From an uncultured Planctomycetales bacterium (GTDB lineage: Bacteria; Omnitrophota; Gorgyraeia; Gygaellales; Profunditerraquicolaceae), in NCBI GenBank assembly GCA_964487475.1, contig CAZAPM010000009.1:24941-88940 (forward strand): DNA of 64,000 bases, written 5' to 3'. Below, piece by piece: positions 21,001-27,000 of this stretch (its first letter is position 1; every line of letters starts with the position of its first letter). Made by a program: the position numbers.

Positions 21001-24000
21001 TGGCGTCCAGAAGATCTCCCTCAGGCGAAACGGAGGAGACGCGATGACCTCCCCTCAGATGGTCTCCGTGATCATGCCGGCGTACAATGAAGAGGCGCAC
21101 ATCGAAAGCAGTATCCGGGAGACCGCGCGCACCTTCGACGCCTTCGGAAGGCCCTGGGAGCTGATCGTGCTGGATGACGGCTCGGCTGACCGCACCTTCG
21201 AGAACGCATCCGCACTGATCCGCGAGTTCGCAGGCCGGCTGATCGTCAAGCGCAACAGGGTGAACCTGGGAAAGGGCCGGGCGATCAAGCGGGCATTCCG
21301 CTACGTGAGCGGGGAGTACGTGGTGTTCCTGGACGCGGATATGGACCTGCATCCGGTACAGGTGCGAACCCTTTTCGATATCATGGAGCTTGACCGCGCC
21401 GATATCGTCATCGGCTCCAAGATGCATCCGAACTCCATCGTGAATTATCCCCTGCAGCGCAGGATCATCAGCCGGGTGTACTACCTGATCATCCGGCTGC
21501 TTTTCAACCTGCCCTGCCACGATACCCAGACCGGCCTGAAACTCTTCCGCAGCGAAGTGCTGAAGAAGGTCTTCCCCCGGATACTGGTAAAAAAATTCGC
21601 CTTCGATCTGGAATTGCTGGTAAATGCGCACCATCTGGGGTATACTATCGCGGAAGCGCCCATCGAACTCAATCCCCAGCGCGTCAAATACGGAAGGATA
21701 GGAGTATGGGCGGTAGGGGTCACATTCTGGGACACGCTGGCGGTTTTTTACCGGATGCACATCCTCAAATACTATGACCGTATCGATTATCATCGCCGTA
21801 AAAACATGGCAAGAAAATTTAGCCAGATGCGTAAAGGAATGTCAAAACCTTGAGTTCCAGGGTTTTGAGATCGTAGTACTCCCGGATGCCGCGTTTGACG
21901 CTGAGTCCCTTGCGCAGCTCCAGGGAAAGGCTCCGGTACGCGTCATTCCCACCGGCGCGGTAGGCCCGGGGAAGAAACGCGATCTCGGCCTGGCGCAGGC
22001 GAAGGGCGGGATACTGGCGTTCCTCGATGACGATGCCTATCCCGTGCCGCAGTGGCTTACCGCGGCAGTGCGGCATTTCTCCGATCCTCAGGTCGCCGGA
22101 GTGGGCGGGCCGGCGGTAACTCCTCCCGAAGACTCTTATCTGCAGAAAGCCAGCGGCGCGATCTACGAATCTTTCCTGGTCAGCGGCGGGTTCGTGTACC
22201 GGTATCTTGCCCGGAGCATCCGGGACGTGGACGATTATCCCAGCTGCAACCTTTTGGTACGCGCCTCGGATATGCGCGCGGTGGGAGGCTTTGACACGGG
22301 GTATTGGCCCGGAGAGGACACCAAACTCTGCCTGGACCTTACCAAGAAACTCAAGAAACGCATTGTCTACGATCCCGAAGTGAAGGTGTTCCACCACCGC
22401 AGGAAGGTCTTTCTCCCGCATCTTAAGCAGATCGCCAGCTATGCGCTGCACCGTGGGTTCTTCGTCAAGAGATTCCCCGAGACTTCCCTGAAACCCGCGT
22501 ATTTCATCCCCAGCGCTTTTGTGGCGTATCTCGCGCTGCTTGTATTCATCCCGGCAACCGGCTTTATCCTGCCCGGAGCGCTTCTTTTGCCGGCGTACGG
22601 ATATCTGCTGCTGGCGCTCATTGCCGCCTTGCGCACACCGGCGCTGGCTATCCTGGTGTTCCCCGGGATATTCCTCACCCATTGCACCTACGGGGTGTTC
22701 TTCCTCAAAGGCCTCCTCATGCGCACGCTTAAGGAAGACACCCGATGAAGGTCCTTATCGCGTATCCTCCTTTAGTCACGCCCAAAGGGTATCCCACGAT
22801 CGGACAGAACCGCCAGTTCCAGTATTTCAAGGAGCCGACGTTCATCTATCCCGTAGTCCCGGCGCAGGCCGCGACACTGCTGAAAGCGCAGGGCCATGAG
22901 GTCATCTGGCTGGACTGCCTGGCACAGGGATTGGACGAACCCGCGTTCCTGCGCATCTTAAAGCAGGAAAAACCGGAGGTGATACTTTTTGAGACAAAGA
23001 CACCGGTCATCCCGCTGCTGTGGAAATACGTGAATATCATCAAGGAACTGGGGTTGAGCGCACATGCCGTGCTCTGCGGCGACCATGTGACCGCGCTTCC
23101 CGAAGAGTCATTCGGCAAATGCAAGGTGGATTACGTCCTGACAGGAGGGGATTATGATTTTCTCCTTGCAAACCTCTGCGCGCACCTGAAGGATCCCGCA
23201 GTCACGCCTCTGGAGCCGGGGATATACTACCGCCGGGGCAGGGAGGTCCTTTCGACGGGCGCATTCCGCCTTGATCACGACCTCAACACCCTGCCCTTTA
23301 TCGACCGGAAGCTCACCCGCTGGCAGGATTACGCCTACAAGAACGGCAATTTCAAGCGCACTCCCGGCACGTACGTCATGGCCGGCAGGGACTGCTGGTG
23401 GGGAAAATGCACCTTTTGCTCCTGGCCGACACTGTATCCGACCTTTCGCAGCCGCACTCCGGAAAACTGCCTGGATGAGATCGGGATCCTGGTGCGCGAC
23501 CTGAAGGTCCGGGAGATCATGGATGATTCGGGTTGTTTTCCCGCAGGAAAGTGGCTGGAGGAGTATTGCCGGGGCATGATATCCCGCGGCCTTCACCGGA
23601 AAGTCTACCTTGACTGCAATATGCGCTTCGGCGCGCTGGGCAAGGAGGAGTTCCGGATGATGAAAAAGGCGAATTTCCGGCTCCTGCTTTTCGGGCTGGA
23701 GTCTGCCAACCAGGGTACTCTGGATAAGATCAACAAGAACGTCGATCTCGGACGCGTCGTGGAGGATTGCCGCAACGCCACCCGCGCCGGGCTCTATCCC
23801 CACATCACGCTGATGTTCGGATACCCGTGGGAGAGTTATGAGGATGCCTGCCGCACCATGGAGCTGGGGAAATATCTCCTGAAGAAGGGACTGGCGTATA
23901 CCATGCAGGCCACGGTCGTGATCCCGTATCCGGGGACCCGGCTCTTTGAGGAGTGCCGCAAGAAAGGGCTGCTGGCGACTCAGGAGTGGGAGGAGTATGA

Positions 24001-27000
24001 CATGAAACGGCAGGTGATGAAAACTTCCATACCGGACGCCGATCTCTTCCGGCTGGTGCAGGGGATGTACGGGGTATCCTTCGATCCCGAATTCGTGATC
24101 CGGAAGCTCTTCGCGCTGCGCGATCCGGATGACCTTAAGTACGCGTTGCGCGCGGTGCGCAAGGTGTTCGGACACCTGCTCGATTTCCGCAAGAAATGAG
24201 CCTACCACGGAGCTTTGCATGATAGAATCCTTTGTCGGCGGGTCAGCGGCGGTGCTGACCATGTTCTCGTTCGTCCCCCAGATCGTCAAGATCGTCAGGA
24301 CCAGGTCCTGCCGGGACGTCAGTATCCTTACCCTGCTGCAACTATCTGCAGGAGTGACATTATGGATAATTTACGGTATAATGAGGGCTGACAGGATCAT
24401 CATCCTGGCGAACGTGATCACCTTGAGTTCCCTGGGGGTGATAATGTATCTAAGGCATCGTTTCCGTAACGCACAGGCACAGTAACCCGTATGCGATATA
24501 TCCCCGTAGGACAATTCGATATCGGTGCGAAGGAGCGCAACGCCATCCTTTCGGTGCTGGACTCCGGCCGGATATCGGAAGGCGCGGTCACTGCCGCCTT
24601 CGAAAAGGAGTGGGCCTCGTACGTCGGCACGCGTTTTGCGGTGGCGGTCAACTCCGGCACCTCCGCGCTGCTGGCGGGGATACTGGCGTGCGCGTACCAC
24701 TACCGCTTGCCGAAGGGCTCGAAGATACTCACCAGCCCGCTTACCTTCATCGCCACTGCCAACGCCATCACCCTGAACGGATTCACCCCGGTGTTCGCCG
24801 ATACCGATCCCAGGACCTTCGTGATCACTCCCGAGTCCATCCTGCGCACACTTAAGAGGGAAAAGGGGGTGCGGGCGATACTGCCCGTGCACCTGATGGG
24901 GTATCCGGCGGATATGGACGCCATCCGATCCATCGCCAGGCGAAAAGGATTGCTGCTCCTCGAGGACGCGGCGCAGGCGCACGGCACCCGCTACAAGGGG
25001 AAGCGCACCGGTTCACTGGCGCTGATGGGGTTCTTCTCGTTCTATATCGCGCACAACATCCAGGCCGGGGAGATGGGCGCGGTCACGACGGATGATGCGG
25101 AACTCTACGGGCTGCTCAAGAAGATCAAGGCCCACGGCAGGATATGCGATTGCCGCGTCTGCACCAGGAACCTCGGCACCTGCCCGCATGCCGCAAGGAC
25201 AAAGCACGATCCCCGGGATATCGATCCGCGCTTCTCCCACGATATACTCGGCTATAATTTCAAGACCATGGAGTTCACCGCGGCGCTGGCGCGCACGCAG
25301 CTGACCCGCGCAGAGGCGATATTCAACGCCCGCAGTCGGAATGTGGCCGGGCTCAATTCCCGGCTTAAAGACCTTGGCCGTTACCTGCAGCTTCCGGTAT
25401 TCGACAGGAACGTCAGCTACCTGGCGTACCCCGTCGTGCTTAAAAAAACCTGCCCTCTGACGCGCAAGGAGGTCAGAGATCATCTGGCGCGCCAGGGGAT
25501 AGAGACCAGGCCTCTGTTCGGATGCATCCCCACGCAGCAGCCCGTGTACGGGCACCTGGCAGCGCACTACCGCGGGCGCGTACCCAATGCGGAGTATGCG
25601 GGAAGCCGCGGCTTCTACCTTGGGTGCCACCAGTACCTGCGTTCCTCGGACCTGGATAGGATCGCGCAGGCCTTTGAAAGGATATTCTCTTAACTTCCCA
25701 TGATCACCTCGCCGATCGTACTTTCCATCGTGCTGCCCACGTATCAGGAGCGGAAGAACGTGGCGGTCTATGTCCCGGAGATCGAAAAGACCTTCGCCGA
25801 CGTACGGCATGAGATCATCATCGTGGACGATAATTCCACGGACGGCACCAGGGAGGAGGCATTGACCCTCAATACCCGCTACGGCAACATCCGGGTGGTG
25901 GGCCGCAAGAGGAAGAAGGGCATCGGCAGCGCCATCCGCCTGGGATGCAATTACGCGGAGGGGGAATACATCCTGACCGCCGATGCGGATATGTCCTTCA
26001 GCTGCGCGGATATGCGCCGCCTCTACGAGCACATCCTGAAAACGAACGCTGACCTGGTGCTGGGGTGCCGGCACTGCCTGAAGGGCTGTTATTACGAGCA
26101 CCAGCAGACCGCCACCCGCGTGAAGAACATGGTCAGCCGGATGGGCAACCTCTTCCTGCGCACGGTAAGCGGGATAAAGGTGCATGATTTTTCCGCGAAT
26201 TTCAGGATCATCCGGCGCAACGCCTGGAAAAGGCTCTTCATCGCCGAGAACGCCAATATCATGCTGTTCGAGACCATTGCCAAGGCGCACCACTACGGGT
26301 TCCGCGTGGAGGAGATCGCCGTGACCTTCAACGAGCGGAAATTCGGACACTCCAAGCTCAACCTCTGCATCGAGATCCCCAAGTATCTCTGGAGAGTGAT
26401 GCCTTACGTGGCGAGATTCTGCTGGAAGAAGGCATGAGCCTGGAATCGCTGCCGCTGATATCCGTCATCATCCCTACGTTAAACAGCAGCCGGACCCTCG
26501 CCGGATGCCTGGAGAGCATCATCCGGCAGGAGTACCCCTGCGAAAAACTGGAAGTGCTTATCGCCGATGCCGGATCCACTGATCCCACGCGCGAGATCCT
26601 CCGCAGGATGCAGGATTTAACGGGTATCCCGCTGAAAGTGCTGGATAATCCTCTGCGCACCGGAGAAGCCGGCAAAGCCGCGGCCGCGCGGCAGGCCAAA
26701 GGAGATATCCTCGCCTTCATCGATTCGGATAATATACTGCCCGATACCCGCTGGCTCGCGCAGATGGCCGCGCCTTTTTCCGATGCGCAGATCGCCGCTT
26801 CCGAGCCGATAAGGTACACCTACCGGGCCGGTGACGGACTGCTGACCCGTTATTGCGCGCTCCTGGGGATGAACGATCCGTTGTGCCTGTTTCTGGGGAA
26901 CTACGACCGGGAAAGCATGGTTACCGGCACCTGGACCGGGATACCTCTGGAGGCCGAACCGGCTGCGGGATATCTGAAGGTGCGTCTGGTGAAAGGGCCT

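Follow-up and report, generated by a model that had tools for sequence, protein, structure and literature searches.

What reaction is carried out by a radical S-adenosylmethionine (SAM) enzyme with a B12-binding-type domain that is encoded among the glycan genes of an uncultured bacterium, and is that reaction the methylation of a sugar carbon? The question is raised by an open reading frame (ORF) at 22745-24199 on the + strand of a 64,000-nucleotide stretch of DNA (assembly GCA_964487475.1, contig CAZAPM010000009.1, positions 24,941 to 88,940; the whole stretch analysed is referred to here as the window) from a bacterium placed in the Omnitrophota by GTDB. An earlier note, made from the sequence alone, had recognised a B12-binding radical SAM enzyme in this ORF, remarked that such enzymes typically catalyse methylation at unactivated carbons or other radical rearrangements, and proposed that, together with four class-I SAM methyltransferases, it serves a heavily C/O-methylated surface glycan or glycolipid. 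The analysis reported here upholds the enzyme, its cluster motif and its glycan context, and gives no support for placing it in a methylating subgroup. The radical SAM (rSAM) gene closes an overlap-coupled chain that runs from the TyrRS gene through a MOP-family flippase and two family 2 glycosyltransferases (GT2a and GT2b), and we give an even chance to the reading in which the enzyme makes a radical modification of a lipid-linked sugar built by the adjacent glycosyltransferases, before outward flipping.

The ORF opens with ATG and encodes a class-B-type radical SAM protein of 484 amino acids (aa), without a predicted membrane segment in a hydropathy scan. Both expected Pfam domains exceed their cutoffs: Radical_SAM (PF04055) scores 48.4 bits against 29.5 over residues 216-374, while B12-binding (PF02310) passes marginally, with 34.3 bits against 32.1 over residues 43-134. 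The N-terminal Rossmann-like (B12-binding-type) domain, at 22745-23194 (+), carries invariant GDHVTALPEES and TGGDYDFLL segments and an equally invariant GQNRQFQYF loop; the radical SAM core, a partial TIM barrel, occupies 23390-23866 (+). Within the core, the translated [4Fe-4S] cluster-binding motif CWWGKCTFC (23393-23419, +) places the cluster cysteines as C217-WWGK-C222-TF-C225, with the aromatic F224 preceding the last of them. This is the CX4CX2C spacing that had been contrasted with the canonical CX3CX2C of a second copy at 59643-60998, and both spacings were confirmed. In an AF2 model built on the family alignment (mean pLDDT 82.5), strands and helices alternate through residues 2-149, and the core fits radical SAM structures with Foldseek E-values down to 3e-19; its best matches in the PDB, all class-B or class-B-like, are MgmA (9ccb), AprD4 (6fd2, TM 0.70), TsrM, OxsB, CysS, and TokK. 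GC content varies little (0.54-0.61), so that composition gives no hint of a foreign island here, and an Rfam scan of the window returned no cobalamin riboswitch and no other RNA match. A search of 5.8 billion proteins returned 5760 homologs at E<=1e-5, the best 120 of them full-length at 61-67% identity; the ORF is therefore not a chance one. The radical SAM enzyme that it encodes is intact and has a Rossmann domain of the B12-binding type.

Homologs that carry a name are nearly all called 'radical SAM protein' or 'B12-binding domain-containing radical SAM protein' and come from Candidatus Omnitrophota metagenome-assembled genomes. In a scan of one genome per species, relatives were encoded in at least 469 GTDB species genomes; 58 of the 80 best GTDB loci are labelled Omnitrophota, and most others are labelled Planctomycetes or an unclassified 'bacterium'. 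Identity within the family (57-67%) is comparable to that of the neighbouring TyrRS (65%) and S1 (74%). The pattern CW[WY]xxCx[FY]C occurs in every one of the 120 best homologs and in 79 of the 81 primary GTDB-locus copies, the other two having no motif; the longer cluster loop is thus a character of the family and not an accident of one genome. An alignment of 20 sequences has a mean column identity of 74%, with many invariant columns in both domains (among them GDHVTALPEES, TGGDYDFLL, RDCWW.KC.FCSW, MDD.G, FGLESANQ.TL, and MFGYPWE), and the window protein has every invariant family residue. HMMER gave only 299 matches at E<=1e-30 among 1.84 billion cluster representatives, with a steep fall-off.

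Classification with curated profiles did not place the gene in a methylating subgroup. The top NCBIfam models are HpnJ (122.2 bits; cutoff 577.6) and BchE (102.1 bits; cutoff 481), and every curated methylase model lies far below its cutoff: HpnR (67.9 bits against 650), PhpK (42.2 against 600), Sden_1168 (49.2 against 575), TIGR04014 for the methyl-coenzyme M reductase glutamine C-methyltransferase (49.2 against 360), and TIGR03975 for RiPP C-methyltransferases (46.9 against 282). Other partial matches are a ladderane-associated lipid rSAM (67 bits) and AprD4 (29 bits; cutoff 500). With all NCBIfam scores far below cutoff, the enzyme therefore belongs to no curated family. Membership of HpnJ (TIGR03471) was rejected on a score about 4.7-fold below the cutoff and on the missing hopanoid context, and membership of BchE (TIGR02026) on its score and on the lack of bacteriochlorophyll genes in the window. 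HpnJ is still the top model for ten of ten relatives of decreasing similarity, below cutoff in all, and it peaks at 381 bits for a 28%-identical relative with the canonical motif; the family is accordingly an uncharacterised, divergent branch of an HpnJ-like assemblage. The Pfam part of the classification that the earlier note had proposed is confirmed, and the family part leans towards non-methylases, a BchE-like outcome that the note had named as contrary to its proposal and that is reached only in part, below cutoff; the sugar context in orthologous loci, whose absence it had coupled to that outcome, is present.

That context begins immediately upstream. The MOP-family flippase (Wzx/Polysacc_synt-type; 19779-21047, +; 422 aa) has many hydrophobic segments, 14 of them, partly overlapping, in a simple hydropathy scan, and its homologs in loci L001 and L003 carry PF01943; its JGI name is 'O-antigen/teichoic acid export membrane protein'. 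GT2a (21044-21853, +; PF00535, 105 bits) is a soluble GT2 of the polyprenyl-phosphate glycosyltransferase type (DPM1/ArnC/GtrB-like), without a membrane segment in the hydropathy scan. The mechanically called ORF opens at 20954, with ATG 21044 as the likely start; homologs of about 264 aa align from residue 37 of the mechanical ORF. Its best sequence matches in the PDB are the dolichyl-phosphate mannose (Dol-P-Man) synthase 5mlz, ArnC (8vxh/9bhc) and GtrB (5ekp), and its best partial NCBIfam matches are PpgS, AglJ and ArnC, a type that fits a putative polyprenyl-phosphate sugar synthase. GT2b (21774-22748, +; PF00535 and PF13632) is a membrane GT2 of the PF13632 type with about three to four C-terminal hydrophobic segments, spanning residues 241-311; in the PDB it is closest to PglI, a glucosyltransferase acting on a lipid-linked glycan, and its partial NCBIfam matches are MftF (126 bits) and AglG, with no match to HpnI. 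ATGA overlaps join TyrRS to the flippase (19779-19782), the flippase to GT2a (21044-21047) and GT2b to the rSAM gene (at 22745), and GT2a and GT2b overlap by 80 nucleotides (nt). A SemiSWEET (PQ-loop) gene (24219-24485, +; 88 aa; NF037968, 81.1 bits against a cutoff of 80, and PF04193) starts 19 nt downstream of the rSAM gene and encodes a protein with three transmembrane (hydrophobic) segments; it is optional within the module. In eukaryotes, the use of dolichyl-phosphate-linked sugars depends on the PQ-loop protein MPDU1, and by analogy the SemiSWEET protein might act on a sugar bound to lipid instead of a free one.

The arrangement is conserved. Counting co-oriented neighbours in 83 related loci, we found GT2b within 8 kb upstream of the rSAM gene in 73-75 loci, usually directly upstream (of the 74 loci having enough upstream sequence, 63 have it at the adjacent offset), GT2a at about 62% identity in 68-70, and the flippase, at approximately -2.95 kb from the rSAM gene, in 51-59. 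SemiSWEET follows downstream in 25-30 loci and is immediately adjacent in 18 of 82 with enough downstream sequence, and TyrRS/S1 lie upstream in about 24 of 83. A GT2b homolog adjoins the rSAM gene even in the distant relatives L085, L087 and L088 (37-47% identity), and in L053 (5238-6971) GT2a and GT2b are fused in one 577-aa ORF with two GT2 domains, which is a Rosetta-stone link between the two. The upstream order Aldedh-NadD-Rpe-PGM-PlsC-S1-TyrRS is also found in L001 and L089, whereas the genes downstream vary across loci and comprise Rml genes, epimerases, DegT, methyltransferases, and further glycosyltransferases. Conserved GT2 and flippase neighbours, with housekeeping genes upstream, therefore place the rSAM gene in a conserved module and not in the strain-variable glycan arrays. 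The glycan-gene context drawn by the earlier note is thus sound, and recurs in orthologous loci with GT2s, the flippase, Rml genes and epimerases; the enzyme is, however, no accessory to a variable glycan array that would be 'heavily methylated', as the module abuts housekeeping genes and the methyltransferases lie in the variable parts.

In the reading that we put at even chances, GT2a and GT2b would assemble, on the cytoplasmic side of the membrane, a mono- or disaccharide linked to a lipid, most likely polyprenyl phosphate. SAM would be cleaved at the [4Fe-4S] cluster of the rSAM enzyme, and the resulting 5'-deoxyadenosyl radical would take a hydrogen from a sugar carbon of the lipid-linked intermediate; the flippase, perhaps with the SemiSWEET protein, would then move the modified glycolipid outward for a conserved envelope structure. 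We favour this reading because of the tight and deep linkage to GT2b, GT2a and the flippase, the HpnJ-like ancestry, and the intact radical SAM enzyme, and it is supported by the precedents of HpnJ and calditol synthase (Cds), which act on lipid-anchored sugars, bacteriohopanetetrol (BHT)-glucosamine and a glucosylated glycerol dialkyl glycerol tetraether (glucosyl-GDGT), respectively.

What the radical would do next is nearly balanced. Reviews class HpnJ, BchE and OxsB as non-methylases, OxsB carries the CX4CX2C motif (PMC9204698), and at a stringent sequence-similarity-network threshold HpnJ co-clusters with the methylases Fom3 and MoeK5, the latter listed as a methylase in moenomycin biosynthesis, while OxsB falls in a cluster apart from HpnJ and BchE. 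A 2026 review finds that, OxsB aside, non-methylating enzymes have no clear structural features separating them from alkylating ones, and that AprD4 and ArsL have a Rossmann-like domain yet bind no cobalamin. Since no clear structural feature separates the methylases, and AprD4 and ArsL work without cobalamin, the sequence decides neither the chemistry nor cobalamin use. Starting from an expectation of about three to one for methylation among characterised class-B enzymes, and discounting it for the HpnJ and BchE ranks, the OxsB-like loop and the marginal B12 score, we slightly favour non-methylating chemistry (an HpnJ/OxsB-type ring contraction, another rearrangement, or an AprD4-type dehydration or oxidation), with cobalamin-mediated C-methylation only a little behind. 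C-methylation is thus one of two roughly equal possibilities, possible and not, on sequence grounds, predicted.

The known system closest to the enzyme depends on what is compared: it is HpnJ by profile, OxsB by motif, AprD4 and MgmA by modelled fold, and the polyprenyl-phosphate (Pren-P)-sugar decoration systems by operon logic. HpnJ is the best curated profile over nearly its full length (residues 32-474 of the enzyme against 30-463 of the 472 profile positions) and, like the window gene, has a GT2 as neighbour, in its case HpnI, which attaches a sugar to a lipid, HpnJ acting after the glycosylation; the HpnJ-like relatives, however, have CX3CX2C where the window enzyme has CX4CX2C. HpnJ domains have been reported only in genomes with squalene-hopene cyclase (SHC) and HpnH, and SHC is rare or poorly conserved in Omnitrophota; no SHC, HpnH, HpnI or HpnK-type domain was found among the approximately 60 ORFs annotated in the 64-kb window or in the genes of L001 and L003.

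OxsB (PDB 5ul2-4), which contracts a deoxyribose ring in oxetanocin A synthesis, shares the CX4CX2C spacing and is the only enzyme with it among the solved ones that we found. Its RGCDYSRCTFC aligns by profile to the family's RDCWYGKCTFC without a gap, whereas MgmA needs a one-residue gap there. OxsB also resembles the enzyme in its class-B fold (Foldseek E 3e-16, TMq 0.68), its sugar substrate and its non-methylating chemistry; the sequence relationship is marginal, however (profile E 1e-4, 24.8 bits), and OxsB, with 744 aa, is much longer than the 484-aa enzyme. Residues 163-476 of OxsB, a region that we take to include its cobalamin domain, align with the family profile. OxsB works with an HD-domain partner, OxsA, that is, in another genomic context than the window enzyme. 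AprD4 (6fd2), a 1,2-diol dehydratase acting on paromamine, gives the best superposition (TM 0.70/0.74), has the same two-domain size (453 aa) and is likewise a sugar-modifying non-methylase, but it differs in its 17% identity, an apparent CX3CX3C spacing in the alignment, and its place in an antibiotic pathway and not in an envelope module. The C-methyltransferases MoeK5, GenK and Fom3 share the class-B architecture, and GenK and MoeK5 methylate sugar carbons; they were compared by description and network only, the available methylase models all lying far below cutoff. The substrate of MoeK5 is lipid-linked, and MoeK5 may thus be one more precedent beside HpnJ and calditol synthase.

Systems that decorate glycans through Pren-P-sugars (GtrA/B/C, ArnC/E/F/T, CsbB/GtcA/YfhO, AglJ/AglG/AglR) share the GT2a type and a flippase in the same operon; GT2b in addition partly matches AglG, which extends dolichyl-phosphate glucose, and distant rSAM relatives lie among YfhO and PMT genes for GT-C transferases. 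A difference is that the genes conserved in the four-gene module include no GT-C transferase; in the window, a weak PMT_2-like candidate lies at 61825-63270, near the second rSAM gene. No Pren-P-sugar decoration system with a radical SAM enzyme is known to us, and searching the literature revealed no radical SAM step in a polyprenyl-phosphate-sugar pathway.

Several observations weigh against a lipid-linked substrate or against confidence in any function. Curated-family scores, put at 4-6 fold below the cutoffs, suggest that homology gives a weak functional hint; the B12-binding score is marginal, PF02310 is missing from the precomputed matches of about one fifth of the orthologs, and AprD4, the best structural match by TM-score, binds no cobalamin. 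Two loci, and only these (L077 and L081), have an intact rSAM gene without GT2b within 8 kb (L077 has a GT2a-like ORF about 2 kb upstream, on the opposite strand), no GT-C transferase is among the conserved module neighbours in the 83 loci, and the substrate could be a soluble nucleotide sugar, as Rml, UGDH/UXS and epimerase genes are frequent neighbours. Evidence for joint loss of the cluster cysteines and the partner genes (described below) comes from two loci of approximately 15 kb each, and the literature search found no paper on the rSAM family or on an Omnitrophota flippase-GT2-GT2-rSAM module.

The most serious competitor, which we place somewhat short of an even chance, is the original proposal of a cobalamin-dependent C-methyltransferase (GenK/Fom3/MoeK5-type) that acts on an unactivated sugar carbon and, with the class-I methyltransferases, yields a surface glycan that is heavily C/O-methylated. 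Methylases make up most of the characterised class-B enzymes, and since HpnJ networks with Fom3 and MoeK5, an HpnJ-like protein can be one. A B12-type domain is present, the four class-I methyltransferase ORFs of the window were confirmed in their glycan context (29665-30360, 51893-52753, 54958-55806 and 57711-58676), and in L086, L088 and three GTDB loci the gene directly after the rSAM gene encodes a class-I methyltransferase. All methylase models, however, miss their cutoffs widely, and the two best profiles describe non-methylases; among the solved enzymes that we found, CX4CX2C occurs only in the non-methylase OxsB, cobalamin binding is a prediction, the methyltransferases of the window sit in variable arrays outside the conserved module, and the sequence itself does not discriminate between the two chemistries. 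A different departure from the lipid-linked reading concerns the substrate: the enzyme may act on a soluble nucleotide sugar or other soluble precursor, GT2a or GT2b then transferring the unusual nucleoside diphosphate (NDP)-sugar. Fom3, DesII and BlsE provide precedent in acting on nucleotide-linked or soluble sugars, the enzyme has no predicted membrane segment, and nucleotide-sugar genes abound around it (RmlA in 22 loci, RmlD-like genes in 17, epimerases in 47, and UDP-glucose 6-dehydrogenase (UGDH) with a UXS-like SDR in four). These genes vary by locus, though, while adjacency to GT2b is the constant feature, and the HpnJ profile and an operon order in which the rSAM gene follows both GT2s and precedes the transporter fit a step after glycosylation, circumstantial as that fit is; we regard a soluble substrate as doubtful.

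It is quite unlikely, in our estimation, that the enzyme is cobalamin-independent, with a vestigial Rossmann domain as in AprD4 and ArsL, and performs a dehydration, an oxidation or another reaction that needs 5'-deoxyadenosine chemistry only. The top TM-score of AprD4, an aminoglycoside-sugar 1,2-diol dehydratase, would suit this, as would the weak and inconstant PF02310 match; the N-terminal domain is, however, conserved as strongly as the core, with many invariant polar residues, and it aligns by profile to the OxsB span taken to include the cobalamin domain, while the NCBIfam AprD4 model fails by a wide interval (29 bits against 500). A modification of the lipid part, in which a polyprenyl, hopanoid or acyl chain is methylated, cyclised or cross-linked in the manner of HpnR/HpnP, ladderane or GDGT enzymes, is very unlikely: although many lipid-modifying radical SAM enzymes are of class B, partial matches to HpnR (68 bits) and the ladderane-associated enzyme were obtained, and PlsC and an MGDG-synthase-like gene occur in the window, no lipid-synthesis gene is conserved nearby, the constant partners are the two GT2s and the flippase, SHC is poorly conserved in the phylum, and all of these scores are far below cutoff.

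Should a lipid-linked sugar be its substrate, the enzyme would bring radical chemistry into the logic of glycosylation through polyprenyl-phosphate sugars and indicate a conserved, undescribed component of the Omnitrophota envelope. A narrower proposal, which we consider speculative and unlikely as it stands, is that the product of the module across the Omnitrophota is a sugar rearranged by radical chemistry, for instance a ring-contracted, cyclitol-type carbocycle, on a polyprenyl-phosphate or membrane-lipid carrier; were it true, the module would be a bacterial envelope counterpart of HpnJ/calditol-synthase chemistry and the first known radical SAM step in Pren-P-sugar glycosylation. Few of the very many class-B radical SAM enzymes have been characterised, and their function is not yet predictable from sequence. 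What is new here is a class-B subfamily, so far uncharacterised, that combines a rare loop variant with a fixed GT2 partner and occurs in genomes for the most part labelled Omnitrophota; its function is inferred. It offers a useful handle, given its housekeeping-like conservation in a whole, largely uncultured phylum, a fixed membrane GT2 partner that narrows the substrate search, and a cluster-loop variant whose relatives range from CX3 to about CX18. A B12-type radical SAM gene beside glycan genes should not, without an assay, be read as evidence of a C-methylated glycan.

Among the relatives (P0130, P0136, P0138, P0141, P0156, P0164, and P0123), the loop between the first two cluster cysteines differs widely in length: it has three residues in HpnJ-like relatives and four in the window family, while sister groups have about 7, 9 and 17-18. 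Five full-length relatives at 38-47% identity (P0128, P0132, P0135, P0140, and P0151) have lost all three cluster cysteines. Genomic context was readable for two cysteine-less copies: that at L089:7001-8419 keeps the S1-TyrRS-[ ]-SemiSWEET-RmlA synteny of the window, with the bracket marking its own place, and that at L090:7001-8455 lies in an unrelated context. GT2a, GT2b and the flippase are absent from both loci (about 15 kb inspected per locus), which is consistent, at n=2, with a functional dependence of the rSAM enzyme on its partners, and the L089 copy suggests decay or repurposing following partner loss.

Other relatives contain inteins with Hint and LAGLIDADG domains at three sites, each inside an invariant motif; the window copy is intein-free. 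Six proteins (P0121, P0125, P0131, P0133, P0157 and P0216) are interrupted at F224|C225 (nt ~23416), where the third cluster cysteine is the +1 extein nucleophile. P0123 has its intein at D216|C217 (nt ~23393), ahead of the first cluster cysteine, and P0215 at L132|T133 (nt ~23141), ahead of T133 in TGGDYDFLL. The long relatives (665-972 aa) were considered as glycosyltransferase-rSAM fusions and rejected, Pfam and pairwise alignment identifying the extra length as intein insertions. The literature search turned up no paper that brings together intein, radical SAM and LAGLIDADG.

The related loci differ further in what accompanies the module. UGDH and the UXS-like SDR lie between GT2a and GT2b in L034, L044, L052 and L068 (for example L044:4724-6972), which hints at a glucuronate- or xylose-type donor, and a Wzy_C ligase-like gene stands ahead of the flippase in six loci. 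Genes between GT2b and the rSAM gene in some loci were rejected as extra partners, no conserved partner being among them: one encodes a 23S-rRNA intervening-sequence (IVS) four-helix protein (Pfam), others resemble, by eye, AbiE-type toxin-antitoxin genes and a helix-turn-helix protein, and some loci hold sugar-nucleotide genes. A 333-aa K/R-rich protein without a Pfam match, with repeated W-x-L-D/N-type segments by eye, is encoded directly downstream of the rSAM gene in 18 loci (for example L041:9531-10532) and is absent from the window. In L085 and L086, four to six radical SAM genes, most of them B12-type, form arrays interleaved with GT2/GT4 genes, Pren-P-type GT2s, a methyltransferase and YfhO/PMT GT-C genes, which suggests extensive radical tailoring of glycans in these organisms.

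The window as a whole is a run of + strand genes. Upstream of the module are a type IV pilus assembly cluster (2231-8059; N-methyl pilin-like, PilM, PilO, and secretin genes) and then a housekeeping block, so that the genes in this part comprise pilus genes, RNase G, Obg, ProB/ProA, NadD, Rpe, PGM, PlsC, S1, and TyrRS. The variable array after the module comprises a DegT aminotransferase, GT2 and GT4 genes, a methyltransferase, a 639-aa ORF (30761-32680) with about five hydrophobic segments and no Pfam match, and a NodU/CmcH-type carbamoyltransferase (32701-34539) that, with this ORF, closes the first glycan array and may give a carbamoylated sugar. LPS (lipopolysaccharide)-core-like genes follow at 36106-41430 and 50061-51914, with two genes of the GT9 heptosyltransferase family, a DegT aminotransferase, an epimerase, a HAD phosphatase (possibly GmhB-like), and an ABC exporter with a membrane domain (possibly MsbA-like), a set consistent with a diderm envelope; the later blocks also include PriA, Fmt, GAPDH and Rml genes and then a second glycan array.

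The second B12-type radical SAM gene lies in this second array (59643-60998, +; 451 aa). Its motif, SRGCVFNCTFC, is canonical, and it belongs to a different family, with 68 bits for B12-binding and 57 bits for Radical_SAM (Pfam) and 23% identity to the first over the core. It is coupled by ATGA to a GT2 gene (60995-61828), which is followed by a PMT_2-like GT-C gene with multiple transmembrane segments (61825-63270; a weak match), and this rSAM/GT2/GT-C triad at 59643-63270 resembles the GT2-rSAM-PMT arrangement of L085.

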